Source: Candidatus Kerfeldbacteria bacterium (GTDB lineage Bacteria; Patescibacteriota; Patescibacteriia; UBA10025; JAHIVO01). Taken from it: 64,000 nt of DNA. Of the stretch, positions 22,152-38,663 are shown one piece after another. The DNA is taken from positions 15,154 to 79,153 of the forward strand of contig CP181398.1 in NCBI GenBank assembly GCA_047946875.1, read 5' to 3'. The position numbers were made by a program, and so were the translations under genes. The stretch's first letter is position 1. Each line of letters opens with the position of its first letter. Under the pieces are notes generated by a model. It did no database searches, was not told the DNA's origin, and worked only from the letters and a program-made list of their open reading frames with translations.

Positions 22152-22196
22152 AAAATGAATAATTTATCCCCCTGCAGGGGATTATAATAAAAAATT

Positions 22197-24539
22197 ATGG
22201 ATTATAATAAAAAAAATAAATTTATAAAAAAAATCACATTTTATAGTATATTTTTTGTAATTGTTTTTTCTGTTGTAGGGATAAAAATAGTTAATGCCGA
22301 ATGGATAGAGCCAAGCAGTCAACCACCTAGTGAAGTCTTTTATGCTCCGATAACTACAACTTCAGAACCACAAGCTAAGGATGGATATTTATTAATCGAT
22401 CCTGTTGATTATCATCCAAGTGATGATAGTTCGTTAGGTTTTAATATAGATAAACCATTAGTTGTGCGTGGAGAGGGTATAAATTTTGAAACACAAAATG
22501 TCTATAATGATAAATTGATTGTAAATACTGATACTTTATATGTTGATCCATTTTTGTATGCTGATCCGTGGGTAGGGATAGGTACAACTAGCAGGGTAAG
22601 TAATGAGAAGTTAACCATTTTTGGTCAGACAGTCCAGATTGGTACTTCGGATGATCCAATTAATGATAGGGCATTGAGTAGTTATAGCGCTGATGATGTT
22701 GGTATTTATGTAGAAACAGGTGGAATAAGTAGAGCAGGTATTTATGCCATAAAAACAAGCAATAATAGTAGAGCAATCTATGGTCAAAGTCTTGGTAGTA
22801 ATGTAGGGGTAAGAGGAGAAAGTACTTACGGATATGGTATCTATGCCAGTACTGATTCAACTAATTATGGAGCGGTCTATGGCAGTAATAGTGGTTCTGG
22901 TTTTGCAGGATATTTTGATGGGCCAGTTAATTCAGTTTCAGATATGATTGCTGATGTATTTTTACCAAGAAAATTACAAAAATCATTAATTTCATATGTT
23001 TCTGGAAACCACGTAAGCTCAACACCGATTGGAAATTTCCCTCCAGCAGAAATTAGCGGTGGAAATGTGATATTTGACGGTGATTATGTTTGGGTGGGAG
23101 TTAATAATGGAAGGGATACTAATGATGTAGAACTTTTCAAAGTAAGGGCATCAGATGGAGTATTAATGGATTCTTTCGCAATACCTGACGCATGGTCAAT
23201 TTTAGAAATGGAATTTGATGGAAGATATATTTGGATATTGGGATACTATGCAAATATTACTAGATTTGATACGGTCACTGGAACTTCAATTTATTTGGAT
23301 GATACTGACAGTGGGTTGGTTCCGGGTGGTGCGGAAAATATTGAACTGATAAAAGTAGGTGATGAAATATATTTGTTTGTAGGAGAGAATATTGCCGGTG
23401 GTAATGATTTAATAATAATAAAAACAAGTGCATTTGATGGTTGGACGGATATTGATGATCTCAGGGAAATAATAAATTTGGATCCTTGGGCTACAAATGT
23501 AAAAGAAATTGTTTCAGATGGTGAGTATATATGGTTGGGGGATATAACCGGAGAAAATTTAGTACGGATGTGGGCAGAAGATCCGGATCAGAATGTAGAC
23601 ACTACACATCCTGTTTTGACAATTGATATGACAACTGCTGATTATTCATGCCTACCTTTTGGAATATTTTTTGACGGTTCATATATATGGTGTTTGCCAC
23701 GCGAACAAGCAGGAAACTATTTTGTGAGAATATGGGCTGAAGATCCAAGTGATGAAAGACATCCGATAACAAGTTATGATTTTTCTGACGATGGGAAATA
23801 CAATACTATGGTTTTTGACGGAACATATTTATGGACAAATAATTATTTAGAAGGAGAATTAAAGAGAATATTGGCTGCTGATCCGGCAAGCTATGATAAT
23901 ACCAAAGATACCTTTATAATGGGATTTGAAAGCCATGAAAATATGGTTTTTGATGGAACATATTTATGGCTTGTAGAAGATGGAAACCAGCCATATTTGC
24001 ATAAGTATTTCTCTGGAACCGGTATGGGGCATACCAATCTAGGAAGTATTGTAGAATTAGATAAAGTTTCTGGATATTGTTCAGTAACTACTACACAGCA
24101 ATGCTTATATGACTGGCAATGCCCAGATTCAGAAACATGTGATGCGGGAAATACAGTTCAGTCGGGTGATGTATACATTGAAGATTCTGCATTTTCTTAC
24201 AATAATCATTGTTATGCAAATCTAACGCATCATTATGACCGATCTTGTGCTACAGCTACAGTAGCTAGTGATTGTAATGGTTTATTAAATCCTACATGTG
24301 TGGGCGGAGATCTGAGGGTAGTAGATGATGTTCAGGTAGAAAATAATAAATGGGGTGGTATATGTGAGGATGGAATAACAGCCTGTACATCTAATGCTGA
24401 TTGTAGCGTTGCTTGTTATGGTGGTACTGTCGCCGTGGATGTTGATGGCAATGCTTCTTGTGATGATGGTGATTATATGAGCGGGGTAGAATTAGATATT
24501 AATGGTGAAATAATTAATATATATTGTTGGGAATTGTAA
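22197..24539 (+). CDS. Surface protein 3 (780 aa): paralogous N-terminal module, propeller repeats and a Cys-rich C-terminus
   Basis: Signal anchor. N-terminus aligns with the preceding two genes. Blades DGDYVWVGVNNG, DGRYIWILGYY, DGEYIWLGD, DGSYIWCLP, DGTYLWTNN, DGTYLWLVEDG. Confidence 0.7.
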   Translation: MDYNKKNKFIKKITFYSIFFVIVFSVVGIKIVNAEWIEPSSQPPSEVFYAPITTTSEPQAKDGYLLIDPVDYHPSDDSSLGFNIDKPLVVRGEGINFETQNVYNDKLIVNTDTLYVDPFLYADPWVGIGTTSRVSNEKLTIFGQTVQIGTSDDPINDRALSSYSADDVGIYVETGGISRAGIYAIKTSNNSRAIYGQSLGSNVGVRGESTYGYGIYASTDSTNYGAVYGSNSGSGFAGYFDGPVNSVSDMIADVFLPRKLQKSLISYVSGNHVSSTPIGNFPPAEISGGNVIFDGDYVWVGVNNGRDTNDVELFKVRASDGVLMDSFAIPDAWSILEMEFDGRYIWILGYYANITRFDTVTGTSIYLDDTDSGLVPGGAENIELIKVGDEIYLFVGENIAGGNDLIIIKTSAFDGWTDIDDLREIINLDPWATNVKEIVSDGEYIWLGDITGENLVRMWAEDPDQNVDTTHPVLTIDMTTADYSCLPFGIFFDGSYIWCLPREQAGNYFVRIWAEDPSDERHPITSYDFSDDGKYNTMVFDGTYLWTNNYLEGELKRILAADPASYDNTKDTFIMGFESHENMVFDGTYLWLVEDGNQPYLHKYFSGTGMGHTNLGSIVELDKVSGYCSVTTTQQCLYDWQCPDSETCDAGNTVQSGDVYIEDSAFSYNNHCYANLTHHYDRSCATATVASDCNGLLNPTCVGGDLRVVDDVQVENNKWGGICEDGITACTSNADCSVACYGGTVAVDVDGNASCDDGDYMSGVELDINGEIINIYCWEL

Positions 24540-24549
24540 ATTAATATTT

Positions 24550-25300
24550 AAATAAAGGACGCCTCCGCTAAAGGTGTTCGGGGAAACAAGTTTATATTCA
24601 TCCCCGACAAGTTGGGGTATCTATAGGTTTAGAAGAGACACCTAAAATGATAAATGAATAATTATGCATTTTAAGAAATTTCATCCGCCACATCTATATT
24701 TGGACAATTGTACTTATTTTTTAAGTAGTCGTACCCTTGATAAAAAAAGATATTTTAATACAGATCATAAAAAAGGAATTTTAGCAGATATTTTAAAAAG
24801 TGCTAGTAAAAGATACAAAATTATTTTATACGGTTGGGTTATTTTGGAAAATCATTATCATCTTTTAATTAAAGTAGATAATAAAAAGCAATTAATTAAT
24901 TTTATTAAGACGTTACATGGCAAAAGCGCGATTGAGTTGAATAAATTTGAGAATAAACCTAAAAGGAAAATCTGGGTAAATTACTGGGACAAATGTGTTG
25001 AGAGTGAAAAAGATTTTCATACACATTTAAACTATATACATCATAATCCCATTAAACATAAATATGTAAAAGATATGAGTGATTATAAATATTCAAGTTA
25101 TCAATATTATTTAAGTAAATATGGTTACGAGTGGTTAGAAAATTGTTTTTATATATATCCAATAATTGATTTTACTTCGCAAGATATTTAATAAATTATA
25201 AATTTGAGGACGCCCAAACTTGTTTGGGGAGGAAGTAAGTAAGTACCCCTCAACAAGTTGAGGCATCCATCAGGTAAAATCGAGTCGGGGTATCCACTGG
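24550..25300 (+). mobile_element. IS200/IS605-type (Y1 HuH transposase) element: tnpA flanked by left and right subterminal hairpin units in direct orientation
   Basis: Left unit 24555-24650 and right unit 25206-25300 share GGACGCC...TTYGGGG...CCYCRACAAGTTGRGG. The hairpins ccccgacaagttgggg (24602-24617) and cctcaacaagttgagg (25248-25263) differ by compensatory changes. Size about 750 bp, typical for IS200. Confidence 0.6.
24664..25191 (+). CDS. tnpA: Y1 HuH tyrosine transposase (Transposase_17; IS200/IS605 TnpA or REP-associated RAYT-like)
   Basis: HuH motif NHYHLLIKV. C-terminal catalytic-Tyr region THLNYIHHNPIKHKYV...YKYSSY matches the YIxxNPV signature. 175 aa. Confidence 0.75.
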   Translation: MHFKKFHPPHLYLDNCTYFLSSRTLDKKRYFNTDHKKGILADILKSASKRYKIILYGWVILENHYHLLIKVDNKKQLINFIKTLHGKSAIELNKFENKPKRKIWVNYWDKCVESEKDFHTHLNYIHHNPIKHKYVKDMSDYKYSSYQYYLSKYGYEWLENCFYIYPIIDFTSQDI

Positions 25301-25306
25301 TTAGAA

Positions 25307-25430
25307 AAGGGACGCCCGAATTCGTTTGGGAAATAAGTTAACAATTATCCCCCGACAAGTCGCCCGTCTGCAACGCAAGCTTGCGAGCGGGCAGAGGGCA
25401 TCCGTCAGGAAAGTATAAGTTGAGGTGAAC
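25307..25430 (+). repeat. Third, solo copy of the IS-end-like structured repeat unit. It contains a longer GC palindrome (gcccg...cgcaagcttgcg...cgggc)
   Basis: Shares GGACGCC, TTTGGG and CCCCGACAAGT words with the units at 24555 and 25206. Confidence 0.5.
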
Positions 25431-25460
25431 AGTAAATAAATAAGCTATAATTATATATAA

Positions 25461-28400
25461 ATGTCCAAATTAACTAAAAAAAGTATACAAGTATTAATAA
25501 TTCTTTGTGTTGCGGTAGTTTTAGCTGCCGGGTTATTTAGTTTGATTTATTTTACTCAACATACCCCTCAACAAAAACATTATGTGATTAAGGAAGTGCC
25601 ACCTGATCCTGAAACAGTGATTGACAAAGTAGTACAGGAATCGGGTAGGAATTATATTGATAAGCGGGATGATGAAGGCAATCTTGTTTTTAACGAGGAT
25701 GGTGCTCTAACGCGTATTTTTTACGGGGCTGATATTTTTTATCAAACAGAAGATGGGGATTATCAGGATATTGATACGACAATTGTGACAGCACAGGGAG
25801 ATTATGATTATGAAAATACAACTAATGTTTCTAAAACGTATTTCAAAGCAGAAACTCAGGAAGATGATTTTATAAAATATGAAGTGGCTGGTGAGAGGGG
25901 TGTAACTTTTTCTTTTGCAGGGGTTGATAAATCAACACCAGAAGTAAGTAGTAATACTATTACATATCCCGATATTTATGAGGGTATTGATGCAAAATAC
26001 ACGATTTCAGGCAGCAAGATTTTGGAAGAGCTGATAGTTGAAGAAGAGCCAATAGTTGACCGAATAGACCAGAATATTAAACTACAGGACGTTTATTACA
26101 AAGAGCAGGATAATGGCTCAATAACATTCCATGATAATGCAACTGGTCATATAGTATTTTTTGCTATTCAACCCATAATGTATGAATTGGAAGAAAGTAC
26201 GGGTTTTAAGAAACAAATTGATGAAAGTGAATCAATGGAAGTGGAAAACCTGACATTTAGTTATGGGTTGCATTATGAAATAACAGAGGCGGATAATGGT
26301 GATATTGTTATAAGTAAAGTAATTGATGATGAGGGCAGGAAGTGGCTGGAGCAGGCAAACTATCCAGTGGCTATTGATTTTACTTTTTCGGCTATTGATT
26401 CGACTGTGGCTCTCTCGGGGGAGTCTTTAAGACACAACTGGAGTGGTACTAATTATTATATGACTACCCCAGCTACTATATCACGAGTAGGAAATTTAAA
26501 TACTAGTGTGGCTAGGTGGTATTATCGTAGCTTTTTTAGTTTTGATACTGGCTCAGAATGGGCTAGTTATGGAAGTAGTGATATTGTAGGAGCAAAATTT
26601 ACATTTTATATGTGGAAAACAGGTACCTGTAGTAACTGTGCAGTTTATGATTATCAAGGCGATTGTAGGTGGAATACCCATCCGTGTTGGCAGCATCGAT
26701 GTGGATTGTGTACCAATGCTGGGGGGGATGTAGGTGAGGAGTCGGCCAGTGGGATATCTGCCAACTCTGGCGCTGATATATGGGACAGTCTTCCTTATCA
26801 TCCCGGAGGAAATGGTTTTTCTGATGCCTATTATAATGTAGTTATGACACCTGAAGGAGCTGTTGATCTGAATGGCATACCAACAACACAAGCTGAATGT
26901 TCAGCAAATCCAGATGACTGCAAAAGAGAAGTATTTGTTGGCATTGATTCAGTTAGCCAGACTGGAGAAACACAAATTGCCCTTTTTGATACAAGTGGCT
27001 TAACGGTAAATGAAGGCAACTGGAAAGGGGTTAGAACTTTTAATTCAGGCAGTGGTGCCCTGGATCCAACTCTGGAAGTAGTTTATATGCCAAAGTTTGA
27101 TATCAATGTAGTGCCTCTTGATTCTGATGAAATGTTAACTATTGAGTGGGATGATAATAGTGATAATGAATCAGGATGGGAGCTTCAGCGGTGTATAGAT
27201 CCAACTCCAGTGGATCCACCTTTTGAATGTGATGATTCTGATTATTTTGATGCGAATCATGTATCTTTTTCTCCTATTCCAACCGGTGATTCAAGCGACT
27301 CATGTGGGACTGATTGCACCTATACGTGTACTACAACGGAAGTAGAAACTGTCGGTGGTTGTACGATAGACAATGATGGTCTTGAATCAGATTCGTTGTA
27401 TTATTATCGGGGTCGTATTATCCATGTTTCTGACCTAGTTTCTGGCCCAACGTCTGTGTGGAGTGAAGACGATGATGGTTCAGGATATAATCATGAGTGG
27501 ACCAGGGCAACTGAGATCCTTTCATCAGTCCTTGAATTATCTTCACCTGTTTGGGATAGTCTGAGGATTTATGGAGGTGGTAGTCCAACTGATGCTTATA
27601 TTGATTCTCACGTAAATTCAAATCCACTTCATACAAAATATGCTTTGGGTGTAAGAGATGAAGATACTTGGAGAAATTGTTTTGCGGAAGATTCGGGTGG
27701 TGGGATATATACATTTCAACTCCCAATAACTACTAATCCGTATACAGTTGATTTTGCGCATAATATGGTTTGGTGGATGACGGATGTATTTGGCTGGCAA
27801 ATGACAGCAGCAATAAATGTTGAAAGTACTGATGATTGTCAAATATATCCTAATCGTGAATTTAAACTTTGTGAATGGGCACAGGATACCAGAAGCCCAG
27901 ATAATTATTTAAATACTCCTACTTCTTATGAGAATTGTAGCTTGGATACTGGGAAAGCTTATAGCCGAGCACGTGACCCTTCTCCACCAACTTTTATTAA
28001 CAATGACCCTTATGGTGGTTATTTTCCTGCAATTACTGTACAAATGGATACTACGCCATTTAGCCTGCCTGTAACGACTCTTAATCCTTCTGATACAGAG
28101 TATGCCATGTCGGTAACTAATGTGAATACAGGTAAAACTAAATTTTTTGGGGATACATCAGATCTTCAAGAGTGGACTATGGGTCAACCTGTGATTCCTG
28201 ATTGGGGCACGCAGTTTCTATGGAATAATAATAATCCTCGCACTGTTTATAATTTGGAGTCGGCAACCTGCTATAAGTTTAGAGCAATATCCAAAAATGG
28301 AGAGCCCACAGAGGTGGGAGAGGTGGGAGAGGATGAGTCGTGGGGTTTTCCTGATTCTGATGAATTTCCGTCAGAAGCGGAAGGTGGTTTTACCGATGAT

Positions 28401-31400
28401 TTATGGTCGGTAGGATATCCGTCAGAGGAATATTGTACTCCTTTATCACCACCAGACCAACCAACTGTAACTTGTGGCTTTAACCAAGAAAAAAGTATTA
28501 TAATAAAGCCGAAGGTATTATCTCAATTGATAAATGATGATGATAAATCAATTTTAAGTATAAAAACAGCAAATGCTTCAGTAAAACTCGCTGATGCAAA
28601 TAGTGAAGGTTATTATTGTGATGTTAGTTTTACAGATGATATAAATACAGGAACAATTTATTATAAAATTCAGCGTTGCGCTCGAAGTGATATAGGGTCT
28701 TGTGCGGATGGAGATTTTATTACAGTCAGCTCAAATAGTACTCTTAAATCATTTATTGATGAGAGCGTCTTTCCTGGTTTAGCATGTGATATTAATAACG
28801 AAGTTTATGAATATAGAGTCCAGGCTGATAATACCATAGTAGAACCTTCAGATTGGTCAACCGTGGCAGAAGATATATTACCACCATGTCAACCAACACC
28901 CGCGCCAACTGCAAATAATTTTCAGAAACAGACTATGACATTTAATTGGACGGCACCATTATTTGGATCTCCAATTTCTGGGTTTAATAGTGGTTATTAC
29001 ACATATTTACTTGATAGTCCTACGGATCTTTCACCAGTCAAGAGATTTCAATCGGTTCTATTTTTGACAACCTACACTCCTCTTCCTTCTTTATATACAA
29101 ATACTCCTTATTATTTTGAAGTTTCTGGTGTTGATGATAGATCAAGGGAAGGTGTTCGTTCACCACAAGGTGGCCCATTTTATACTTTAGCTGATAATCC
29201 AAATTTTACGGTAGAATGTGGTTATGATAGTTCTGATTATTGCACAGTAGATATAACTAATCATGGTTTAAATGATGTCGAGAATCATCCACCTGATTAT
29301 TGTTTAAGTAGAAAAGTTGGTTCTAGTTCTAGTTGGCGATATTATAACTATGAAAAGAGTAATTGGGGTATATCTGGTCCGGCAACTTGTGATGGACAAA
29401 CTTCAGATTATTGGCGAAGTGCTAAAACTGATTATACAACTTCTTGGAGTTTAACAGATTATAATTTAACTTGTAATACTTTATATACTTATAGAATAGA
29501 AGCAAAAAACGATGTAGGAATTGTGACACCTTCTCCTCACGAAGAATCTGATACTACGACTATTTGCCCACCGTTAAATGTTAGACATACTTATAATGGA
29601 TATTTAAGTGGATACAGAATTAGAGTGGCTTGGGATAATCCACCACCAACTATACCACCAACATTACCTGATGAAATAAGGATTTATAAAGATGCTACTT
29701 GTGGAGGAGATTATGAAGTTATGCCTACTGGGTCAACAGAAACAGATAATAGTACTGATCCAAATTATGGTACCGATGCATCGTTATATGCTAATATTGA
29801 GAAGCCATATAGTGTTTGTTATTATAAGGATGGAGTTTTAGGTAGGCCAGGAGATGGAGATTTGAATGCTTATACATCTATTCAAACACCTACGGGTGTT
29901 AGTTTTAGCAGCGTAACAAAAGATTCAATGGTTGTTAATTATCGGGGAACTTTAACACGTCTTAGTGGAAATAGTTTAGATTTCTATATGTCTTATACTA
30001 ATGGAGGGTCTGGTGGGAGCAATCCTTCATGGATACCAGGATCCTATAATGATACAGGATTATCGACAAATTATCAGTATTGCTATAGGGTGAGAGCAAA
30101 GAATAATGAAACTGGAGCATATACGACTGGTGATTACACAAACTACGGTCCAGCAGGTGATCAAGATGATTGTAAATATACTCTTGCTAGTATACCAAAG
30201 CGTCCGGTTCGTAGTCAGGTTGATTCGTCAACTGTCAATGTGATTATTAGAGAAGGTGATGGTAATCCTCACGGAATAGGATTAGCAGATGATACAGATT
30301 ATGCAATTTGTGTGACAGAGTATAATATTGATGGTTCTGTATATCAAGAAGGTTATGTCCAAAATAATAATACTGTGAATTGGTTACCACCGCCTGAAAA
30401 ATGTGGAGATAGTGATACGGGAGTATCTTGGGATACTAGAGCGGGTTGGGGATTGGATAGTGGAGTGGATATTACTGGAGTTGAATCATCTAAAAAATTT
30501 GGATTTTCTGTAAAAGCAAGAAATGGTGATGATATAAATACAAATTTTGGTCCAGAGGCAACATTATTTTTAGTTAAGAATAATGTTGTAGGTTGGGCTT
30601 GGTCTGCAAATATTGGATGGGTATCATTAAATTGTCTTAATTTTTTCAAAGACCAAGACTATGGATTTAGTTGTGATCCAGGAGAACATTGGGGAATAAA
30701 TACAAGTTATGAGCCTACTAGGACAATTAATCCTGTAGAAGGGTATGCTTGGTCAGCATCTGGTCAGGCGCTGAAGGAAACTCTGAGTATTTCTGAAACT
30801 ACTCAGATTGGAGTAAATGCAGGTCCAAAAGGAATTACTTATGACTCAGAAACTCCTGGTGGACCGTATGTGTGGGGAGTAGTTTGGGCTAGTGATCATA
30901 TTTTGTTCAGATTGAATTCAGTTGATTTAACATTTGATACTTTTTTGATTGGTACGGCTGGTGATGACCTTAGAGATATAGTATTAGCTAATGGATATTT
31001 ATGGATTACTGCAAACACAACAGGTAAGCTGTATAAAGTGGATCCCGCAAATCCATCAGGCGGAGCGGTAGATACTTTGGATTTTGAAACTTCCGCTTTT
31101 ATATCTGGTTGTGCTTCTGAGGATTGCCATCCATTTCATATTGCTTATGACGGAACAGATTTGTGGATTAGTAATGATGTAGCTAATAATGAAGGTTTGA
31201 TATTTCGGGTGAACACTAATGATGGTTTGGAACGTAATTGTGACGGTACGGAATTTTCTGGTAATAATAACGATCGATGTAATTTGGGGACAACTTATTC
31301 TGGCTGGCCGTTTGTGCTTAATAATGATGTTTGGGTAGTTAATAAGTTACCATTAGGTGTTTCTAAAATTTCTATTGCTGATGGAAGTATTTCTTCTTAT

Positions 31401-34400
31401 CCTTTAACTACTTCGAATCCATATGCGATTGATTACGATGGTCAGTATCTCTGGATCACGCACAACAATAATCCTGGCATAGTTACTATATTAAATCCGA
31501 ATGATGGTAGTGAGGTTAATAGTTTCGTTGTTGGTAGTCAACTAAGGGGAATAATACCTTTTAATAATTCAATGTGGGTAGCGAGTCTCGGTGATGATAC
31601 AGTGATTCAATTAGATCCATATACACAGAGTGTAGTGGATACTTACAATGTTGGGGATGAACCGTGGGAACTGACAACAGACAATGACGCAAATATTTGG
31701 ATTACCAATCATGGTTTATCTAAAAATGTTTCAAAAATAAATTTAAGTGACGAATCAGTTAAAGTAGGCTTAGGTTGGATCAGTCTAAATAAGGCTGTTT
31801 GTTCAAATGATTCACAACAAGGATGTACTGATGATGATGAATGTGGAGTGGTTACTGATCTATGTGTAGATACGCCAGCGGAAGAAGTAAGTGAAGATAT
31901 TATCGTGGCTGGTGATCCACCGTCTGGAGATGTTGCTTATGGCTTTTGTTATGATAACGATGCTCCTTCTTCTGGTGAAAAATATGGAGAGTGTTCGAAA
32001 ACAACTGGTCAAAGTTGTACAGAATCTGATTTAGCAAACTGCTTAGATATTGAAGAGTATTGTATTTATTATACTTGCCAAACTGGTGATATATGTATTG
32101 ATCCTGTTTCTCCCCCAAGTCCTGCGGGTTGGGTTAAAGAATGTCGAGATACTGCAACTGCGAATTTCAATGGAGAGACTAGAGAGATAGAGGGATGGGC
32201 AAGAATATTGTCATCAAAAAAACAAGGCGAACAATATACACCTCCTTTTGATGATTGGGGTTGGATAAAACTTGGTGGACAATATGACGATGGCGAAGGA
32301 AATACAGGCGATTATAATTTAGCTGGAACGGAAATTGATTCTCAGTTATTTTTAGGTGATCCAGATGTATCTGGTGATAGTTTATCACTATATACAATAT
32401 TTGGTTGGGGGTGGAATGCTGATATTTCAGATTATACGGCAACTTCAGATTGGTTACCGTCTATAAATATTAGTAATAATTTCGCTGCGAGACGTGGACT
32501 TGAACGCGTTCATAATTCGGCCATGATCTTAGATTCGAACGGTGATCCACATATTGCTTGGGAAGTTTTTGATACTGTTCATCTTTATTATGATATTTAT
32601 TATCTAAAGTTGGTAGCAGGTAAATGGTTTACGATATCGGGAGTTGAATATCAACCTGGAGCGATGGATCCCTTTGGTTCTATGTTAAGTGTAGGATATG
32701 GATCTGGTTTATATGACGATGGGAGGCATATAAGATTTCCTTCATTAGCTCTTGGCGCTGATGATTACCCTCATCTAGCCGGAGCTTATGAAGAGAGTGT
32801 CTGGAGGGGCAGCCAAAATGAGGGGGGCGATATAATCTATACAAAATGGAACGGCTCTCAGTGGACAAGTTCTGATGGTGTAACATCAGGTTATGATGTA
32901 GTTGGTGGGGAAGCTAGTGATGATGATCATGCTCAAGTTCCAATTTTGAAACTTAATGATAGCGATGTTCCGAATATTGTGTATAGAGTAGGAATATCTG
33001 GTTATGGTGATATTTATTTTAAAGTTTGGGATGGTCGGATTTGGAATACTATTGATGGAACTTCGGATAGTTTGAATGTTAGTAACATTACTAATTCTAG
33101 TTCAGTAACTCCAAAATTAATAATGGATGGTAATACTCCACATATTGTATATATAGATAGTGGATTGGCTAAATATAGATGGTGGGATGGTACTAACTGG
33201 GTATCAGCAGGTCTTGATGAGCCTTTTGACACATATGTCTGTTCTAATAATTTTTTAACAAGTTGTACCGAGGCTACTGAACAAGCGGATTGTGGATGGT
33301 ACTGTCATGATAATTCAGTCAACGCTGGTAATCTATGTTCTGTTGATATTGATTGTGGCACTGATTATTGGGCACAATGTTTACATAATAGGTGTGAGAG
33401 TGAAGATGTGGCAGTTAATTGGGGATTGAAGACATGTAATGGTTTTGTAGATGGAACTAAATGTTACGACGACGATGATTGTCCTGTGAGCTTGGATTGT
33501 CAGAAATTATCTAATATTGAGTGGAATGTATATGGAACAGAGGCGGCTAGTTTTGATTTGTATGACGAAAGCACTCCTGGAGTTGTATTCCGTGGTTCAA
33601 CTGGAATTTATTATCTTAGGTGGGATTCAACTATTGATAACGGTGACGGAACATTTGGCGCCTGGGTGTCAGTCAGTGGTGGAGATCTTGAATCATCAGA
33701 TTTGGTAATCTCTAATGCTGGAGGGAGAGCAGGACGTGTTCCTTCTGTAATTATTGGAGATGATAATTATCCCAGAATTATTTGGGGAGAAGAAATTTCA
33801 AATCTGTCAGATATTACTTATAAACAGTGGGATGGGTCTCAATGGCAAACTATAGATGGTATAGCATCTCCTTTACCACCTGCACCACCAAACGTAGCTA
33901 ATCAATCTGCTTATATTTCTGAAACTCCTGCTGTTCAGTCATATAGTCCTTCTGTACAACTAGATCGATTTGGTAATCCTCATGCACTTTGGTCAGAAAT
34001 TAATTATAGCGGTTATTCTTGTGGTGAGTTTGGTAATGGAGGTGTTATTGATGGTATTGATGGGGATATTCATGATATAGAGATTGATTATGATAATAAC
34101 GCTATTTATCTAGCCGGTGTCTCTGATGATGGTGGAGTACCGCATTGGCGAATAGATAAAAGAAGATTTGATACAGGGGCATTAATTGCAGCTTTTGATA
34201 CTGATGGTTTTATAAATGGTGATGCTGATACTCTTTCGGCTTGGAATATAGAATTAGACAAAGATAATAATAATTTCTATATTGTTGGTAGAGAATCAGT
34301 GGGTGATGATTGGCGATTGGAGAGGAGAAATATGGATACTGGTAGTATTGATTGGCCAGACAATCCAAGCGGGGTCGTTAGAATGGGTTATGGTAATGCT

Positions 34401-37400
34401 ACCGACGGAATAGATCTAAAAATTGATAGTGAGAATATATATATAACTGGAGTTGATGATAGTGATAATTGGCGGATAGAAAAAAGAAGTAAAAATAATG
34501 GAAATTTAGTTACGAATTTTGGTACTGATGGTTTTATTATTAGTACGGATGGAAATAATGCGAAAAAAATATTGATCGATGATACTTATATGTGGGTAGT
34601 TGGTCAAGATGATAATCTCCATTGGAGGATTGAAAAGCGATTATTAAGTAATGGTGATTTAGTTACTACATTCGGTAATGCAGGAATATTTACTGGCTCT
34701 TCGACTAATCCAGATAGTGGAAATATTTATGATGTTACGATTGATGGTGATAATATTTATATTGTTGGGAAAACTACTGATAATAATTGGTTGACTGCTA
34801 AATTGGATATTAATTCAGGAATATTGGATGAGGATTTTGGTGTGGATGGATATGTAGAGACATCCTATGCATCAGCTGTTAATTTTATTTATGGTATAGA
34901 GGTCAGTGGTGATGATATTATTATTGCTGGTAGTTTAGGTGATGGTTTAGATAATGATTGGCATTATGAAATAAGGAATAAAAATACAGGTATTATTAAT
35001 GAAATTGTTGTAAATAATGGTTGGCAAAATGGTTTAATTGATTCTGTCAATGGTAGTTTGGTTTGGGGAATGGACGGTGATGATGATTATATGTATATAT
35101 TTGGTAATGATGATAGTGGTAATTGGCGAATAGAAAGACGATGGAAATCAACTGGTACATTAGATAATCACTATAATACAAATGCTTTTAGTGATTGCAA
35201 AGATCCAGAATATCCTATGTGTATATATACTTCGCCATCGTTCGAATGTCTGGGTGGGGATATATTTTATAGTCGTTGGACACCAGGAAATGTCCAAGGT
35301 GGAATAGGTTGGGTAGAATTCATGCCAGCCGGAGCTCTACTTGGAGTACCGTGGGTTCAGACTGCTTTTGCAGATATCTTTGGTACAGAGGGTGTTAGTT
35401 TATCTCCTCCGCCACGTGGTAGTGGAGAATACACTGCGACATATTTGATTTTATCTAACGGTAGTATTGAAGGCATACCTACGTATTATTATGGCGATAG
35501 TAGTCGGCAACCATCAACTCAATTTTATGAAGGTGGATTAAATCCATTGATTGAGGGATCTAGTCTTCCGTTTGGTGAAGATGCACTATCAAAAATTAAT
35601 GTCGATGCTTTAGTATCTGGGCCGGACTTTAATAGATATGGGCATCCTTTAACAACAGTTACACAAAGTGGTATTGATATTAGTGATAGCAGTCAATTAG
35701 GTGATTCACCTTTACTAAATGGAGGTGTTTATCATTATATCGGAAATGCATCGATAGACGATGAAATGACTTTTATAATAGGTGATTCAGATCCAACTCC
35801 AGCAACAGATCCAGAAACAACAGGAAATGGATTAATAGTTATAGATGGTGATCTAGAAATAAATGCCAATACTTATTATGAGGCAGGTGTTTTGGCAGAT
35901 ATTACAGAGATGCCATCGGTAGGTCTTATTGTCCGAGGTAATATTTATATTAGTCCTTTCGTGACAGAGTTAGCCGGAGTATTTGTAGCTTTAGACAATC
36001 CTGATACAGCAGATATTTCGGAAGGTATTATTAGTACAAGCAGAAAGAGCCCACTTATAACTGAGACAGCAGATAATGATGATGCTTATGTATCTGTAAT
36101 TGGTTCGGATTATGATAATACTAATCAAACTGTTCCAGATAATGAATCATTAAAATTTGGTAAAGAAGTTGCCGATATTGGCAATTATCAATTTAGATTA
36201 AAGGCAACTTTAAATACAAATTTATTAGGGGTAACGAGCACTGAGCCAAATATTCCTATCATGGTAAGAGTTGGGGATGTTGGCACTGCTCCATTTGATG
36301 ATTTTTGGTTGAATAATTCTGACGATATAAACGGTTATGATATCAACTTTGCAGATGCTGATGGTACACCATTAGATTTTCATATTGAAAAATTTGAAAA
36401 TAACCAAGAAATAATAGTTTGGGTTCAAGTCCCACAACTAGATATTAATTCTTTAAATGACTATATTTGGATGTATTATGGTAGTGTTTCTCCTGTTAGC
36501 CAGCAGGATGAAAATGGCACTTATAATAGTGAATACGTTGGAACTTGGCATCTGAATGAAACATCTGGAGATCGTCATAATTCGACCAGTACAATTTCTA
36601 TTGATGGTGTGCCATCAGCATCACTGGCAAATGAACCTGGCGGTATTGCAGCAGGAGCTGATAAATTTGATGGTACTGGAGGAACTCTGGATAATGGCTA
36701 TTGCTTTGAAGGTTTAAATACTGGCGGCGTGAATAATCTTTGTAGGTATGATATTGATTGTGAGGACCCTGCAGGAACTCTTTGTACAGATGTTCAAGGA
36801 GGATCTAATCCTGGTGGTTGTATGGTCCCAGACCCAACAGGAAGTTATCTTGAAATGCCTATTAATATACTTAGTGGAGCTGGTAACTTTACTATTGAAG
36901 CTTGGGTGAGAACTTCTACAACTGATAATTTGGTTACTATAATCGAACAAAGAGATGAGAATAACGCGGGTGATGGTAGTTATCAGCTTAGGATTTATAA
37001 TGGAATAGAACTTCATTTTTACTATTGGCAATATTTTCCTGGTATTAGCTTTAGTATTTCAGCAAATGATTCTAATTTAAATAATGGAAGTTGGCATCAT
37101 GTAGCAGTTACAATAAATAATACAAATGATGAAGCTATACTATATATTGATGGAGTTGCGGAAGCTACTAGGATAGATATGACAGATATAATTGATATAG
37201 ATGCTGAAAATAGTACTTATGTAGGTGCAGATATTTCCAATACAGGTGGTCATGGTTGGCCTTGCTATAAAGTAGATAGTTATTTTAATGGAGATATTGA
37301 TGAAATTAGGATATCTAATACAGTACGATCAGCTGAATATATTCAGGCAACTTATCTTGCAGAAAATGGTTCTAGTTCATTTATAACTTGGGGGACTCAA

Positions 37401-38663
37401 GAAGAAGTTGAAAATCAAACTGATCGTACATTTTTAAGATTTCCGTTCGGACCAGGTACTATCAATGATATATTACCAAATTCAGAAATTAGGAATGCAT
37501 ATCTAAATCTAACGGATGATGGTAATAGTTCTAATGGTCCGTTTGATGCAAAAATATATTTAATTGATTATGGTGATGTGGTTGAATTTACAGTAGCAAA
37601 TTGGCCTGCTCAAGATTTGTACAATGTTAATGTATCTAATGGTATGACTTATAGTATTGATACTAATACTTGGGATAGTACTATAGATTCTGAGAATATG
37701 AGTGTGGATATTAAATCTTTGATTCAGAGGTATGTAAATAGTGATGAATATGGTCAATCTTATGCTGATGGAGATATTACATATCTTGGTCTTGTTATTA
37801 ATGAAGGTGATGCCGACGTTGGAGATTTTAGATCATTCTATTCTCAAGAAGATACTACTGGCCATGCCCCAGAATTAATTGTCGAACATTCACCACGAAG
37901 AACATATTTAACTATTGATCCTTCAAATGTAAATGATGATGTTCACGCTTGGGGTAGCGCTGCGGGTGAATATTCATTAAATTCTAGTTGTCTGTATGTT
38001 GGTAGTTATTCAAATAATCCTAATAGAATTTTCTATCGTTTTATACCAGATACAGCCTATACAATATTACCTGATAATTCTGAAATTATTGAAGCTCATT
38101 TAAGATTAAATAATACTGGTTGTGCGACTGGAACAGAACCTTTTCAAATACGACAAGGATTGTTAAATAAAAATGTAGCGGGAACAACTTTTAATGATAT
38201 GCCTACAATTTCATCTAATCCATATAATTTTGGATTAACTCAAGACGTTTTTGAAGTATCACAAGAGTTATTAGAAAATGAGTTTAATAATTCAAATATT
38301 GTATTAGATGATATCTCAAATTTAGTTCAGTCATGGATAGATGATACTATCGTTAATTATGATTTTGGTAATGATATTGGTTTAAGGTTGCGACGTGGTA
38401 ATAAATCTTCAGAGATTATAAACGGAGCAGGTGAATATAGAGCTGTCAGTGAAGATGCTTCGATTTTGGAAGTTGATTATTTAGTACCATTACAGGTTAG
38501 TGGACTTTTCGTTGCTCGTGGATATAATTTTGATAGAAAGTATACCAAAGATCTTGCTCCGTCCGAAAGGATTGTGTATGATGGTAGGGTAGTAGCAAAT
38601 ACGCCACCCGGACTTGCTGATTTTTCTAAAGCACTTCCAATTTATCAAAGAGTAGCGCCGTAA
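25461..38663 (+). CDS. Giant (4400 aa, 13.2 kb) membrane-anchored surface protein: N-terminal TM, Fn3-like modules, Vgb/NHL-like propeller repeats, Cys-rich modules, delta-60-like repeats and a C-terminal LamG/ConA-like lectin domain
   Basis: N-terminal TM VLIILCVAVVLAAGLFSLIYF. Blades DGTDLWISND, DGQYLWITHNNN, DANIWITNHG. WRIDKRRFDTGALIAAFDTDG-type repeats. LamG-like segment GTWHLNE...FTIEAWVRT...SWHHVAVT...FNGDIDEIRISN. Confidence 0.75.
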   Translation: MSKLTKKSIQVLIILCVAVVLAAGLFSLIYFTQHTPQQKHYVIKEVPPDPETVIDKVVQESGRNYIDKRDDEGNLVFNEDGALTRIFYGADIFYQTEDGDYQDIDTTIVTAQGDYDYENTTNVSKTYFKAETQEDDFIKYEVAGERGVTFSFAGVDKSTPEVSSNTITYPDIYEGIDAKYTISGSKILEELIVEEEPIVDRIDQNIKLQDVYYKEQDNGSITFHDNATGHIVFFAIQPIMYELEESTGFKKQIDESESMEVENLTFSYGLHYEITEADNGDIVISKVIDDEGRKWLEQANYPVAIDFTFSAIDSTVALSGESLRHNWSGTNYYMTTPATISRVGNLNTSVARWYYRSFFSFDTGSEWASYGSSDIVGAKFTFYMWKTGTCSNCAVYDYQGDCRWNTHPCWQHRCGLCTNAGGDVGEESASGISANSGADIWDSLPYHPGGNGFSDAYYNVVMTPEGAVDLNGIPTTQAECSANPDDCKREVFVGIDSVSQTGETQIALFDTSGLTVNEGNWKGVRTFNSGSGALDPTLEVVYMPKFDINVVPLDSDEMLTIEWDDNSDNESGWELQRCIDPTPVDPPFECDDSDYFDANHVSFSPIPTGDSSDSCGTDCTYTCTTTEVETVGGCTIDNDGLESDSLYYYRGRIIHVSDLVSGPTSVWSEDDDGSGYNHEWTRATEILSSVLELSSPVWDSLRIYGGGSPTDAYIDSHVNSNPLHTKYALGVRDEDTWRNCFAEDSGGGIYTFQLPITTNPYTVDFAHNMVWWMTDVFGWQMTAAINVESTDDCQIYPNREFKLCEWAQDTRSPDNYLNTPTSYENCSLDTGKAYSRARDPSPPTFINNDPYGGYFPAITVQMDTTPFSLPVTTLNPSDTEYAMSVTNVNTGKTKFFGDTSDLQEWTMGQPVIPDWGTQFLWNNNNPRTVYNLESATCYKFRAISKNGEPTEVGEVGEDESWGFPDSDEFPSEAEGGFTDDLWSVGYPSEEYCTPLSPPDQPTVTCGFNQEKSIIIKPKVLSQLINDDDKSILSIKTANASVKLADANSEGYYCDVSFTDDINTGTIYYKIQRCARSDIGSCADGDFITVSSNSTLKSFIDESVFPGLACDINNEVYEYRVQADNTIVEPSDWSTVAEDILPPCQPTPAPTANNFQKQTMTFNWTAPLFGSPISGFNSGYYTYLLDSPTDLSPVKRFQSVLFLTTYTPLPSLYTNTPYYFEVSGVDDRSREGVRSPQGGPFYTLADNPNFTVECGYDSSDYCTVDITNHGLNDVENHPPDYCLSRKVGSSSSWRYYNYEKSNWGISGPATCDGQTSDYWRSAKTDYTTSWSLTDYNLTCNTLYTYRIEAKNDVGIVTPSPHEESDTTTICPPLNVRHTYNGYLSGYRIRVAWDNPPPTIPPTLPDEIRIYKDATCGGDYEVMPTGSTETDNSTDPNYGTDASLYANIEKPYSVCYYKDGVLGRPGDGDLNAYTSIQTPTGVSFSSVTKDSMVVNYRGTLTRLSGNSLDFYMSYTNGGSGGSNPSWIPGSYNDTGLSTNYQYCYRVRAKNNETGAYTTGDYTNYGPAGDQDDCKYTLASIPKRPVRSQVDSSTVNVIIREGDGNPHGIGLADDTDYAICVTEYNIDGSVYQEGYVQNNNTVNWLPPPEKCGDSDTGVSWDTRAGWGLDSGVDITGVESSKKFGFSVKARNGDDINTNFGPEATLFLVKNNVVGWAWSANIGWVSLNCLNFFKDQDYGFSCDPGEHWGINTSYEPTRTINPVEGYAWSASGQALKETLSISETTQIGVNAGPKGITYDSETPGGPYVWGVVWASDHILFRLNSVDLTFDTFLIGTAGDDLRDIVLANGYLWITANTTGKLYKVDPANPSGGAVDTLDFETSAFISGCASEDCHPFHIAYDGTDLWISNDVANNEGLIFRVNTNDGLERNCDGTEFSGNNNDRCNLGTTYSGWPFVLNNDVWVVNKLPLGVSKISIADGSISSYPLTTSNPYAIDYDGQYLWITHNNNPGIVTILNPNDGSEVNSFVVGSQLRGIIPFNNSMWVASLGDDTVIQLDPYTQSVVDTYNVGDEPWELTTDNDANIWITNHGLSKNVSKINLSDESVKVGLGWISLNKAVCSNDSQQGCTDDDECGVVTDLCVDTPAEEVSEDIIVAGDPPSGDVAYGFCYDNDAPSSGEKYGECSKTTGQSCTESDLANCLDIEEYCIYYTCQTGDICIDPVSPPSPAGWVKECRDTATANFNGETREIEGWARILSSKKQGEQYTPPFDDWGWIKLGGQYDDGEGNTGDYNLAGTEIDSQLFLGDPDVSGDSLSLYTIFGWGWNADISDYTATSDWLPSINISNNFAARRGLERVHNSAMILDSNGDPHIAWEVFDTVHLYYDIYYLKLVAGKWFTISGVEYQPGAMDPFGSMLSVGYGSGLYDDGRHIRFPSLALGADDYPHLAGAYEESVWRGSQNEGGDIIYTKWNGSQWTSSDGVTSGYDVVGGEASDDDHAQVPILKLNDSDVPNIVYRVGISGYGDIYFKVWDGRIWNTIDGTSDSLNVSNITNSSSVTPKLIMDGNTPHIVYIDSGLAKYRWWDGTNWVSAGLDEPFDTYVCSNNFLTSCTEATEQADCGWYCHDNSVNAGNLCSVDIDCGTDYWAQCLHNRCESEDVAVNWGLKTCNGFVDGTKCYDDDDCPVSLDCQKLSNIEWNVYGTEAASFDLYDESTPGVVFRGSTGIYYLRWDSTIDNGDGTFGAWVSVSGGDLESSDLVISNAGGRAGRVPSVIIGDDNYPRIIWGEEISNLSDITYKQWDGSQWQTIDGIASPLPPAPPNVANQSAYISETPAVQSYSPSVQLDRFGNPHALWSEINYSGYSCGEFGNGGVIDGIDGDIHDIEIDYDNNAIYLAGVSDDGGVPHWRIDKRRFDTGALIAAFDTDGFINGDADTLSAWNIELDKDNNNFYIVGRESVGDDWRLERRNMDTGSIDWPDNPSGVVRMGYGNATDGIDLKIDSENIYITGVDDSDNWRIEKRSKNNGNLVTNFGTDGFIISTDGNNAKKILIDDTYMWVVGQDDNLHWRIEKRLLSNGDLVTTFGNAGIFTGSSTNPDSGNIYDVTIDGDNIYIVGKTTDNNWLTAKLDINSGILDEDFGVDGYVETSYASAVNFIYGIEVSGDDIIIAGSLGDGLDNDWHYEIRNKNTGIINEIVVNNGWQNGLIDSVNGSLVWGMDGDDDYMYIFGNDDSGNWRIERRWKSTGTLDNHYNTNAFSDCKDPEYPMCIYTSPSFECLGGDIFYSRWTPGNVQGGIGWVEFMPAGALLGVPWVQTAFADIFGTEGVSLSPPPRGSGEYTATYLILSNGSIEGIPTYYYGDSSRQPSTQFYEGGLNPLIEGSSLPFGEDALSKINVDALVSGPDFNRYGHPLTTVTQSGIDISDSSQLGDSPLLNGGVYHYIGNASIDDEMTFIIGDSDPTPATDPETTGNGLIVIDGDLEINANTYYEAGVLADITEMPSVGLIVRGNIYISPFVTELAGVFVALDNPDTADISEGIISTSRKSPLITETADNDDAYVSVIGSDYDNTNQTVPDNESLKFGKEVADIGNYQFRLKATLNTNLLGVTSTEPNIPIMVRVGDVGTAPFDDFWLNNSDDINGYDINFADADGTPLDFHIEKFENNQEIIVWVQVPQLDINSLNDYIWMYYGSVSPVSQQDENGTYNSEYVGTWHLNETSGDRHNSTSTISIDGVPSASLANEPGGIAAGADKFDGTGGTLDNGYCFEGLNTGGVNNLCRYDIDCEDPAGTLCTDVQGGSNPGGCMVPDPTGSYLEMPINILSGAGNFTIEAWVRTSTTDNLVTIIEQRDENNAGDGSYQLRIYNGIELHFYYWQYFPGISFSISANDSNLNNGSWHHVAVTINNTNDEAILYIDGVAEATRIDMTDIIDIDAENSTYVGADISNTGGHGWPCYKVDSYFNGDIDEIRISNTVRSAEYIQATYLAENGSSSFITWGTQEEVENQTDRTFLRFPFGPGTINDILPNSEIRNAYLNLTDDGNSSNGPFDAKIYLIDYGDVVEFTVANWPAQDLYNVNVSNGMTYSIDTNTWDSTIDSENMSVDIKSLIQRYVNSDEYGQSYADGDITYLGLVINEGDADVGDFRSFYSQEDTTGHAPELIVEHSPRRTYLTIDPSNVNDDVHAWGSAAGEYSLNSSCLYVGSYSNNPNRIFYRFIPDTAYTILPDNSEIIEAHLRLNNTGCATGTEPFQIRQGLLNKNVAGTTFNDMPTISSNPYNFGLTQDVFEVSQELLENEFNNSNIVLDDISNLVQSWIDDTIVNYDFGNDIGLRLRRGNKSSEIINGAGEYRAVSEDASILEVDYLVPLQVSGLFVARGYNFDRKYTKDLAPSERIVYDGRVVANTPPGLADFSKALPIYQRVAP
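34070..35170 (+). repeat. Degenerate delta-60-like tandem repeats within the 4400-aa gene
   Basis: About 6-7 units with motif Y(I/M)xG...DNWRIEKR...G.LD..FG. Confidence 0.6.

Follow-up and report, generated by a model that had tools for sequence, protein, structure and literature searches.

The interval between two large surface-protein genes of a Candidatus Kerfeldbacteria genome very probably holds a REPtron, that is, a gene for a REP-associated tyrosine transposase (RAYT, of the class 2 TnpAY1 type) bracketed by its cognate repetitive palindromes (REPs). The host belongs to the CPR bacteria, and the gene is an ordinary, single-copy RAYT gene. It lies in a window (the whole stretch of DNA analyzed) of 64,000 nt. 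An earlier note on this DNA, made from the letters alone, had described the place as an IS200/IS605-type transposase with three structured repeat units, inserted between two giant adhesin genes. Much of that description survives closer analysis, in a form that favors the RAYT branch for the enzyme, where the note had left IS versus REP/RAYT undecided, and that revises the nature of the repeats.

The 175-aa open reading frame carries the HUH motif NHYHLLI (H64-Y65-H66) and a tyrosine region, YIHHNPIKHKYV...YKYSSY, containing Y124, N128, H132, and S144-S145; both regions had been picked out in the earlier note. A profile search of the Transposase_17 type, which the note had named as its own check, came out in its favor, with Pfam Y1_Tnp (PF01797) matching at 38 bits against a cutoff of 23. 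The top PDB match is TnpAREP of Escherichia coli (4ER8, E 5.3e-8); the TnpA proteins of IS608 and ISDra2 match at E ~0.01. In a residue-level alignment, Y124, N128, and H132 correspond to TnpAREP Y115, N119, and H123, and H64/H66 fall inside the aligned block that holds the HMH motif of TnpAREP (H59/H61). All five residues (H64, H66, Y124, N128, and H132) are invariant in 12 homologues, as are S144-S145, and the conserved C-terminal tail ends in YPIIDFT. These comparisons place the protein among the HUH/Y1 enzymes of the IS200/IS605 superfamily.

Within that superfamily, the evidence from the protein favors RAYT over IS200, because the NCBIfam equivalog model NF047646 (REP_Tyr_transpos) is matched above its cutoff (102.9 bits versus 80, E 1.4e-29, profile positions 5-146 of 146) and the IS200 model NF033573 below its own (26.9 bits versus 55), because the tyrosine motif is Y---NP, because there is a C-terminal extension with SS, and because the gene occupies one place per contig. 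The motif YIHHNP (Y124-IHH-N128-P129) represents the class 2 signature Y---NP (Quentin 2018), whereas subclass 1.1 has Y---Q; a C-terminal extension that runs past the IS200 core and carries conserved SS is a RAYT feature. The locus thus combines the HUH and Y---NP motifs, a family HMM score above cutoff, the SS-bearing extension, flanking REPs, and low copy number, all expected of a RAYT, and does not show the HMM score, Y---Q motif, multiple copies, or tnpB expected of IS200/IS605 subclass 1.1. No tnpB-like ORF adjoins the gene, whose neighbors encode proteins of 780 and 4400 aa. The IS200/IS605 label therefore holds for the superfamily and gives way to RAYT for the branch. Exact subclass placement was attempted and set aside: NHYH, WD, YIHHNP, SS, and the length of 175 aa fit no single row of Quentin's table.

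The REP is 21 nt long: the tag GGAYG stays unpaired at the 5′ end, and the stem-loop CCYNAAC-TT-GTTNRGG, 7 bp closed by a TT loop, makes up the rest (the coordinates of all features are collected in Table 1). Position 5 of the tag (G) is read as unpaired because position 22 is rarely C. Each of the three units consists of two inverted 21-nt REP hairpins, tags outward, at ~19 nt spacing, forming a REPIN-like doublet ("HH dimer"). The units begin with GGACGCC at 24557, 25208, and 25310 and are ~75% alike; A and B have the same orientation on opposite sides of the RAYT gene, at distances of 42 nt from the start of its ORF and 17 nt from its end. The three structured units of the earlier description are thus present, each as two inverted REP hairpins and not as a single subterminal hairpin, and the stretch GGACGCC...TTYGGGG, which had been taken for a linear motif, is itself a hairpin. 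GGACGCC makes a poor marker: three of its six matches in the window (at 20375, 21209, and 21398) are unrelated and sit in coding repeats of a gene for a 2159-aa protein.

Preservation differs among the units. Unit B consists of a left REP (25208-25228, GGACGCCCAAACTTGTTTGGG), a 19-nt spacer, and a right REP on the minus strand (25248-25268, GGATGCCTCAACTTGTTGAGG). As single-stranded DNA, it folds into one long imperfect hairpin on either strand (−14.6 and −15.7 kcal/mol, z −2.5 and −3.1), with arms that are 77% complementary, so that it has the REPIN geometry of an inverted pair, short spacer, and single hairpin. In unit A, the left REP (24557-24583) keeps the GGACGCC tag, with the 5′ half of the stem replaced by TCCGCTAAAGGT; the right REP (24602-24622, AGATACCCCAACTTGTCGGGG, minus strand) has a mutated tag and one A.C mismatch. 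The whole unit folds no better than shuffled sequence (z −0.95). Unit C, which also folds no better than shuffles, has a left REP (25310-25330, GGACGCCCGAATTCGTTTGGG) with loop TC and two G.T pairs, and a right REP in two pieces (25350-25362 and 25396-25403) that when joined give CCCCGACAAGTCGGGGCATCC, a perfect hairpin. The third unit does stand before the gene for the 4400-aa protein, as a doublet in which 33 inserted nucleotides interrupt the right hairpin. That insertion folds on itself at −12.9 kcal/mol (RNA parameters), and no second copy was found among all sequences compared. The anticodon arm of tRNA-Arg was considered as its source and rejected, since E values of 0.09 (window) and 0.57 (all sequence compared) mark the 13-nt match as a chance one. 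A further REP fragment between units B and C, similar to the right REP of unit A, had escaped the earlier note.

Table 1. Coordinates of the features of the locus (positions within the 64,000-nt window)
Feature	Position	Strand	Description
Upstream neighbor, gene for the 780-aa protein	22197..24539	+	N-terminal domain paralogous to the 1012-aa and 2159-aa proteins
Whole putative REPtron block	24557..25413	+	Doublet A, RAYT gene, doublet B, REP fragment, doublet C; ~857 bp
Unit A, decayed REP doublet	24557..24622	+	Alignable end to end with the corresponding L129 doublet, which is intact
RAYT gene (TnpAREP-like HUH Y1 enzyme, predicted)	24664..25191	+	175 aa, intact ORF
Unit B, the sole intact REP doublet	25208..25268	+	Both stems perfect 7-bp palindromes
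REP fragment	25283..25297	-	AGTCGGGGTATCCAC on the plus strand; tag and half stem of a GGATACCCCGAC-type REP
Unit C, REP doublet with defects	25310..25403	+	After removal of the insertion, alignable through the spacer with both other units and the L129 doublet
G+C-rich hairpin insertion in the right REP of unit C	25363..25395	+	33 nt, CCCGTCTGCAACGCAAGCTTGCGAGCGGGCAGA
Downstream neighbor, gene for the 4400-aa protein	25461..38663	+	Start codon 48 nt past the end of the block

The hairpins CCCCGACAAGTTGGGG (24602-24617) and CCTCAACAAGTTGAGG (25248-25263) differ by a two-sided change from C:G to T:A and a one-sided change from G:T to A:T. These paired changes had been reported as compensatory, and copies of the REP in other genomes bear this out. 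A scan of reference genomes with the pattern GGAYGCCYNAACTTGTTNRGG returned at least 120 stretches with the REP, and the 147 exact pattern matches among those listed strongly covary: stem pair 9:18 is Watson-Crick in 133 of 147 (76.7 expected), pair 8:19 in 134 of 147 (108.9 expected), and six complementary stem variants occur. The foot tag in these 147 listed copies is GGAYG and not the canonical GT[AG]G; "atypical" structures without GTAG are known for subclass 2.6 and class 3. Rfam at gathering thresholds called three tRNAs and nothing else in the whole window, and relaxing the search of the region to E values up to 10 gave chance-level matches only, with no known RNA family that fits.

Among the matches listed, pairs running plus then minus with tags outward, as in unit B with its 19-nt spacer, are the commonest arrangement (50 cases, with spacers mostly of 13-21 nt), and heterodimers account for 43 of 49 outward-tag dimers. 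The listed copies avoid long open frames, 26% falling inside one versus 83% of random positions. Many copies are found in several genomes of Poribacteria, Armatimonadetes, and Anaerolineae; no Kerfeldbacteria contig is among the matches listed. Only one of the 120 listed stretches, L103, has a strong RAYT match, and another, L091, has a weak one (22% identity, E 4e-5). A metagenome scan with the GAC/GTC stem variant of units A and C yielded 22 stretches, none from the source organism and most of them single copies in high-G+C contigs; two further loci, L129 and L148, came from it. In the literature searched, no paper connected REPs with CPR bacteria, Poribacteria, or Armatimonadetes.

Association of this REP with RAYT genes recurs elsewhere. 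The same core lies within ~150 nt of homologous RAYT genes in L002, L004, L129, and L103, with a variant form in L148, and both unit B 21-mers (GGACGCCCAAACTTGTTTGGG, and GGATGCCTCAACTTGTTGAGG in reverse complement) are base-identical on both sides of the L002 homologue, whose protein is 62% identical. More distant homologues have their own, different palindromes at equivalent positions. In four other homologues, the palindromes adjoin the gene only, within flanks of up to ±10 kb.

Four co-oriented paralogous large genes (1012, 2159, 780, and 4400 aa) make up the genomic setting, and they and the RAYT gene all lie on the plus strand with short gaps. The 4400-aa protein has Pfam DUF2341 and Laminin_G_3 domains and shares repeats with the 2159-aa protein. 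The downstream neighbor is giant, as the earlier note had it; the upstream one, at just 780 aa, is not, and "adhesin" is a putative label for either. The gap between the two is 921 nt, and the orthologous site can be recognized by orthologues of the 780-aa protein, at 47% identity in L129 and 52% in L151. In L129, this site is occupied, with a REP doublet and a RAYT gene following the orthologue. L151 has eight genes collinear with the window and lacks the block: 39 nt separate the stop of its 791-aa gene from the ATG of the giant gene, with neither RAYT nor REP between them, in keeping with the claim of an insertion between two genes. Flanking the site, the window and L151 share TTGGGAATTGTAAATT to its left and TATAAGTT to its right. 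Because L151 is without the whole block and L129 has doublet and RAYT after the same upstream gene, the ~857-bp block was gained or lost as one unit, a pattern of presence and absence that would fit an autonomous element too.

The suggestion that the element supplies or disrupts the promoter of the gene for the 4400-aa protein found no backing. Neither promoter-like nor terminator-like sites were called in 25192-25460, the region scanned was no richer in promoter-like sites than shuffles were, and the block as a whole contains no terminator-like site. In a fragmented assembly of this organism from JGI, the contig ends within the gene for the 780-aa protein and not at the REPs, so that contig breaks are uninformative as a test for repeats here.

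The exact 175-aa protein occurs at one place per contig on three contigs (one of the 0.2-1 Mb class), and no paralogue of the RAYT from the 1.31-Mb contig is among the homologues listed. No REP copies beyond the locus were found in 76 kb of the source contig (up to 3 mismatches and a structure-aware scan), which is ~6% of the ~1.3-Mb genome. A search for the 780-aa protein returned no paralogue from the source genome, while giving the L129 and L151 loci. With only unit B intact, units A and C damaged, the gene single-copy, and the block present in some relatives and absent at the same site in another, this looks more like a low-copy or aging system than like one that is expanding.

If it works as TnpAREP of E. 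coli does, the enzyme would engage a REP in its folded form, together with the 5′ tag, where the DNA is single-stranded, such as at a replication fork. Cleavage near the REP would then proceed through Y124, while H64, H66, N128, and H132 would coordinate a metal ion, and the enzyme would join the strands again; REP doublets could in this way be excised, copied, or rearranged in trans. Conservation of the spacer between copies suggests that the doublet is what gets copied. Binding, cleavage, and mobilization of REPs by this RAYT are thus expectations drawn from a related enzyme.

Three other explanations deserve weighing. The palindromes could be no more than a chance likeness of short G+C-rich sequences in an A+T-rich intergenic region, as the shuffle-like folding of units A and C and the modest similarity among the three units (~75%) might lead one to suspect; this is refuted by the identical 21-mers beside a homologous gene in an independent genome (L002), by alignment of the units over their full length, through the spacer, with the corresponding L129 doublet, and by the strong covariation over 147 listed copies. 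Alternatively, the block could be an autonomous IS200/IS605 insertion sequence with tnpA only, in which unit A at one side and units B/C at the other are subterminal ends and the 857 bp move by "peel and paste." Its discrete limits and clean absence from the collinear L151, as with seamless insertion or excision, the like-oriented hairpins at both ends (units A and B are direct), and a protein of the same superfamily would all suit such an element. We nevertheless consider it highly improbable: the protein passes the RAYT model and not the IS200 model, its motif is Y---NP and not the Y---Q of subclass 1.1, and the gene is single-copy per contig with no same-genome paralogue among its homologues. 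Moreover, the hairpins are symmetric inverted doublets, and elsewhere they lie far from transposase genes (among the 120 listed stretches, RAYT matches are confined to L103 and, weakly, L091). The doublet and RAYT behind the same upstream gene in L129 also speak against it; since the L129 orthologue of the 780-aa protein is just 47% identical and yet is followed by both, long residence at this site can be argued.

A reading to which we give some weight, while thinking it unlikely, is that the locus is a fossil, its enzyme drifting or kept for another single-strand DNA task and its hairpins local leftovers. Any effect of the hairpins would then be as RNA or DNA structure between co-transcribed large genes, for instance through pausing or protection of the upstream transcript. 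Two of the three doublets are damaged, the 76 kb of source contig holds no other REP copies, four other homologues have palindromes beside the gene only, and published work reports REPtrons in species without a REP family. The four large genes and the RAYT gene share a strand with short gaps, and the L151 counterparts are 39 nt apart, so that read-through transcription is plausible. The ORF is nonetheless intact with every catalytic and metal-binding residue conserved, and the block lacks a terminator-like site. Unit B, moreover, has no defects and shares its REPs base for base with the 62%-identical L002 homologue, an identity that would be hard to maintain in the absence of selection or recent activity.

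Whether a lineage of GGAYG-tagged RAYTs and REPs spreads horizontally as whole REPtrons is a further question, and here we offer the idea tentatively, as possible more than probable. The 21-nt core adjoins RAYTs of only 39-62% identity, in CPR bacteria and Poribacteria. A tree of 12 RAYTs places those with the GGAYG REP in two groups with weak support (31-59%), and at such support no conclusion was drawn from it about REP switching versus transfer. If the idea is true, a RAYT system would be self-mobile and not strictly vertical and domesticated, with an active example in CPR genomes.

What the locus contributes is mostly of value for annotation. NCBI already names the gene product "REP-associated tyrosine transposase"; the REP doublets and the GGAYG tag, which are unannotated, explain a 921-nt gap in an array of large surface-protein genes. 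A by-product of wider reach is a REP type whose tag departs from GTAG and whose stem clearly covaries, together with a cognate clade of RAYTs found across several little-studied phyla. The occupied (L129) and empty (L151) orthologous sites form a natural before-and-after pair for the question of whether a whole REPtron can move. Current understanding of REP/RAYT systems is not overturned.

The E. coli REPtron, in which TnpAREP (4ER8) acts with REP/BIME elements (Ton-Hoang 2012; Messing 2012, PMC3479197), provides the closest solved relative. The tyrosine and the N and H ligands align, at low overall identity (36 bits), and both proteins have a C-terminal extension absent in IS200 transposases; in E. 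coli too, inverted REP pairs flank the gene, likewise three in number. The tag, in contrast, is GTAG there and GGAYG here, and the long bulged hairpin of the E. coli REP is replaced by a short perfect stem of 7 bp with a 2-nt loop. The host, a CPR bacterium of ~33% G+C, is unlike E. coli, which has hundreds of dispersed REPs where the 76 kb examined here has none beyond the locus.

REPIN-RAYT systems of Pseudomonas and enterobacteria (Bertels and Rainey 2011, PMC3116915; Bertels 2017, PMC5581495) share the unit of two inverted REPs with a short spacer and the single-copy transposase flanked by doublets, and here doublet and RAYT stand behind the same upstream gene in L129 as well. Systems of this kind are described as mostly inherited vertically within lineages, whereas the present REP core occurs in several phyla and the block is missing from the equally close relative L151. 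With IS200/IS605 elements (IS608 and ISDra2 TnpA; subclass 1.1), the locus has in common the HUH/Y1 fold family (PF01797) and, by analogy for the 175-aa protein, the probable recognition of single-strand DNA hairpins that unites IS200/IS605 and RAYT enzymes. It differs in its sub-cutoff IS200 score, its Y---NP motif, and the lack of tnpB and of multiple copies, and in hairpins that are inverted doublets and that in other genomes also occur without the gene.

The GTAG- and CGTC-tagged REP superfamilies and the TIRYT/TIRtrons (Di Nocera 2013, PMC3733652) offer the nearest parallel for the repeats themselves: a short palindrome, an unpaired terminal tag, and an extragenic position, with TY-type loops, stems of 6-9 bp, and outward-tag dimers, mostly heterodimers, as typical features. 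In L004 and L103, the single inverted REP on each side of the gene is reminiscent of a short terminal inverted repeat. GGAYG is neither GTAG nor a listed GTAG variant. GGACG does include GACG, the complement of CGTC; CGTC repeats are described with A-T pairs at the start of the stem and with a CCA tail, and as lacking an associated transposase (Di Nocera 2013, PMC3733652), whereas the GGAYG REPs come with a transposase of their own.

In a window of 33% G+C, the 780-aa and 4400-aa genes of a large gene array are parted by a 921-nt gap (stop at 24539 to ATG at 25461) that holds the 175-aa ORF and three G+C-rich units. The sequence details that an earlier note had recorded at this locus are all correct; its observation is confirmed and its interpretation refined. 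Three further GGACGCC matches in the window, in the coding repeats of the 2159-aa gene, are unrelated to the units.

Features of the locus and its surroundings (window positions)
Feature	Position	Strand	Remarks
Large gene array (1012, 2159, 780 and 4400 aa)	12628-38663		co-oriented, partly paralogous
175-aa ORF	24664-25191	+	within the 921-nt gap
GGACGCC-starting units	starts 24557, 25208, 25310		G+C-rich
Unit A	24557-24622		left tag kept, 5' half of left stem gone; right REP with mutated tag and a mismatch
Unit B	25208-25268		intact, both stems perfect
REP fragment	25283-25297		
Unit C	25310-25403		left REP weakened; right REP split by 33-nt insertion
33-nt hairpin insertion	25363-25395		G+C-rich, inside right REP of unit C

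The ORF had been read as a HuH transposase of the IS200/IS605 type, the choice between IS and REP/RAYT being left to a further check. The HUH/Y1 assignment stands (Pfam Y1_Tnp, 38 bits, cutoff 23), and the evidence from the protein points to the RAYT branch, since the IS200 model gives 26.9 bits (cutoff 55) and the protein passes the NCBIfam equivalog NF047646, REP-associated tyrosine transposase (RAYT), with 102.9 bits (cutoff 80); NCBI already uses the latter name for it. Among solved structures, E. coli TnpAREP matches best (4ER8; E 5.3e-8), with IS608 and ISDra2 TnpA at E ~0.01. Y124, N128 and H132 align with the TnpAREP catalytic Y115 and ligands N119 and H123, and H64/H66 fall inside the aligned block holding its HMH motif (H59/H61); all five residues, together with S144-S145, are invariant across 12 homologues. 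The tyrosine motif, YIHHNP, fits the Y---NP signature of class 2 (TnpAREP) and not the Y---Q of IS200 transposases (Quentin 2018). The identical protein is found on three contigs, at one place each; it lies on SWBX01001492.1 (79 kb, GCA_008633345.1) and, in a Candidatus Kerfeldbacteria MAG (Patescibacteria/CPR), on a contig of 1.31 Mb. None of its homologues is a paralogue from that larger contig.

Homologous loci in other genomes define the repeat. At L002 (RAYT 62% identical), 21-mers base-for-base equal to those of unit B, GGACGCCCAAACTTGTTTGGG and, on the opposite strand, GGATGCCTCAACTTGTTGAGG, lie on either side of the gene. At L004 (53%) one copy directly precedes the ATG and another, inverted, directly follows the stop, and L103, in Poribacteria (39%), has the same bracket plus a run of tandem copies. 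These loci give a module of 21 nt, a REP in which an unpaired 5' tag, GGAYG, precedes a stem of 7 bp closed by a TT loop (CCYNAAC-TT-GTTNRGG). The three structured flanking units had been described as a linear motif with one hairpin apiece; the units are there, but homologous loci show two inverted REPs instead. With tags outward and ~19 nt between the REPs, units A, B and C are REPIN-like doublets, a form called 'HH dimer' by Di Nocera 2013 (PMC3733652). The three units and a doublet at the corresponding position of L129, a relative's orthologous site, align over their full length, spacer included, so the copied unit is the doublet and not the single hairpin. As a whole, the unit B doublet folds into a single long, imperfect hairpin too (z -2.5 on one strand, -3.1 on the other).

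Without its insertion, the right REP of unit C is a perfect CCCCGACAAGTCGGGGCATCC; a second copy of the insertion was found in none of the sequence examined. Its 13-nt match (ACGCAAGCTTGCG) to tRNA-Arg(GCG), in the anticodon arm at 287-299, is at chance level (E 0.09 for the window, 0.57 for all examined sequence). Another 13-nt exact match, TACCCCTCAACAA, links part of the unit B right REP to 25562-25574, within codons 1-40 of the 4400-aa gene (E 0.07), and is probably chance.

The pattern GGAYGCCYNAACTTGTTNRGG, which leaves positions 8, 9, 18 and 19 wholly or partly unconstrained, was scanned over one reference genome per species, with at least 120 stretches listed. Among the 147 matches listed, 133 have a Watson-Crick pair at 9:18 and 134 have one at 8:19, where column frequencies predict 76.7 and 108.9, with complementary stem variants CG/CG, CC/GG, TC/GA, CA/TG, TG/CA and CT/AG, bearing out the structural covariation proposed earlier; a third covarying pair, 10:17 (A:T to G:C), occurs in units A and C. 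The commonest arrangement among the matches listed is, as in unit B, plus-then-minus (50 pairs, spacers mostly 13-21 nt). Heterodimers, unit B likewise being one, account for 43 of the 49 plus-then-minus dimers listed, an excess that points to selection on the individual small hairpins rather than on the long one. Only 26% of REP copies among the matches listed lie inside long open frames, against 83% of random positions, and many copies occur in several Poribacteria genomes, one Armatimonadetes and one Anaerolineae. A RAYT match is strong only at L103 among the 120 stretches listed, and weak at L091 (22% identity, E 4e-5), so the hairpins lie dispersed, apart from the gene. In other phyla, then, the GGAYG-tagged REP type is repetitive, extragenic and palindromic. 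At L003, L152, L153 and L155 (RAYTs 44-54% identical), different palindromes hold the corresponding positions and were seen only beside the gene, the usual pattern of RAYT-specific REPs.

Tandem arrangements also occur. Directly upstream of the L103 RAYT homologue (3081-3304; Poribacteria chromosome OX638316.1), six same-strand REPs start 37-43 nt apart, forming a tandem array and not inverted doublets. Upstream of the 46%-identical RAYT of L155 (~9830-9930), three tandem copies of a ~30-nt unit, GGAGTGCGTCAGCTTGTTCCATTTTCTCCC, precede the palindrome proper to that gene, GCGTCAGCTTGCTGACGC. An Anaerolineales contig (L074) bears at its end (17-205) three same-strand REP copies spaced exactly 84 nt, which suggest a longer tandem repeat containing the REP. 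The REP-bearing SBAY01 contigs labelled 'Nitrospira sp. Bin_21_1' (L006, L017, L033, L051, L071, L101, L117, L119) have only ~37% G+C. For Nitrospira this seems a low value, and the bin may be a mixture or carry the wrong label.

Orthologous sites in relatives bear on how the locus arose. In L129 the 780-aa gene has an orthologue with 47% identity. After it come an intact REP doublet, a further REP and the beginning of a RAYT gene, of which the contig contains 44 residues, 73% of them identical. L151 shares with the window a collinear run of eight genes (33-85% identity); RAYT and REP are absent there, and only 39 nt separate its 791-aa gene from the giant gene. Set against this empty site, the occupied one indicates that the block (~24557-25413) was gained or lost as one unit. 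Such clean presence or absence is the sole point for an autonomous IS200-type element, a reading that we consider very improbable given the HMM scores, the tyrosine motif, the single gene copy, the symmetry of the doublets and the gene-free dispersal of REPs in other genomes.

If the REPtron, a RAYT gene bracketed by its own REPs, works like E. coli TnpAREP, its enzyme would bind the folded REP and 5' tag on single-stranded DNA, cleave nearby via Y124 and a bound metal ion, and rejoin the strands, with REP doublets mobilised or rearranged in trans. In the Kerfeldbacteria genome only unit B looks competent. No further REP was found outside the locus within 76 kb of the source contig, ~6% of the genome (≤3 mismatches; structure-aware scan), so more than ~50 evenly spread copies are unlikely; when metagenomes were scanned for the stem variant seen in units A and C, no contig of the source organism came up. 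The system appears low-copy or ageing here. A weaker form of the REPtron reading, in which the locus is a fossil and its hairpins are at most structural elements, is doubtful, though worth keeping in mind.

An effect of the block on the 4400-aa gene is possible. The block parts genes that abut in L151 and adds several hairpins to what is probably a read-through transcript. The suggestion that the element supplies a promoter finds no backing, as neither promoter-like nor terminator-like sites were called from the RAYT stop to the ATG. No terminator-like site was called anywhere in the block.

As for the large genes themselves, the 1012-, 2159- and 780-aa proteins have an N-terminal domain of ~350 aa in common, and the 2159- and 4400-aa proteins a long tandem-repeat run with the recurring motif WRIEKRLLSTGxLD. 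The L151 orthologue of the 2159-aa gene has only 1297 aa, so repeat number differs among relatives. A perfect palindrome, CCCCTGCAGGGG, unrelated in sequence to the REPs, occupies 22168-22181, in the 45-nt gap between the 2159-aa gene and the 780-aa gene. The latter is split into two called ORFs, of 493 and 225 aa, in a JGI assembly that apparently represents this organism (L157, 228-2380); the cause is a frameshift or else a misassembly.

No paper linking REPs to CPR bacteria, Poribacteria or Armatimonadetes was found in the literature searched; REPs with other tags or none have already been published, as have REPtrons from genomes that lack a REP family. Canonical REPs carry a GT[AG]G tag, whereas those of the Kerfeldbacteria locus do not. 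The locus nonetheless shows the protein-level features of RAYT/TnpAREP and the REPtron arrangement, and it most likely belongs to this already known type.
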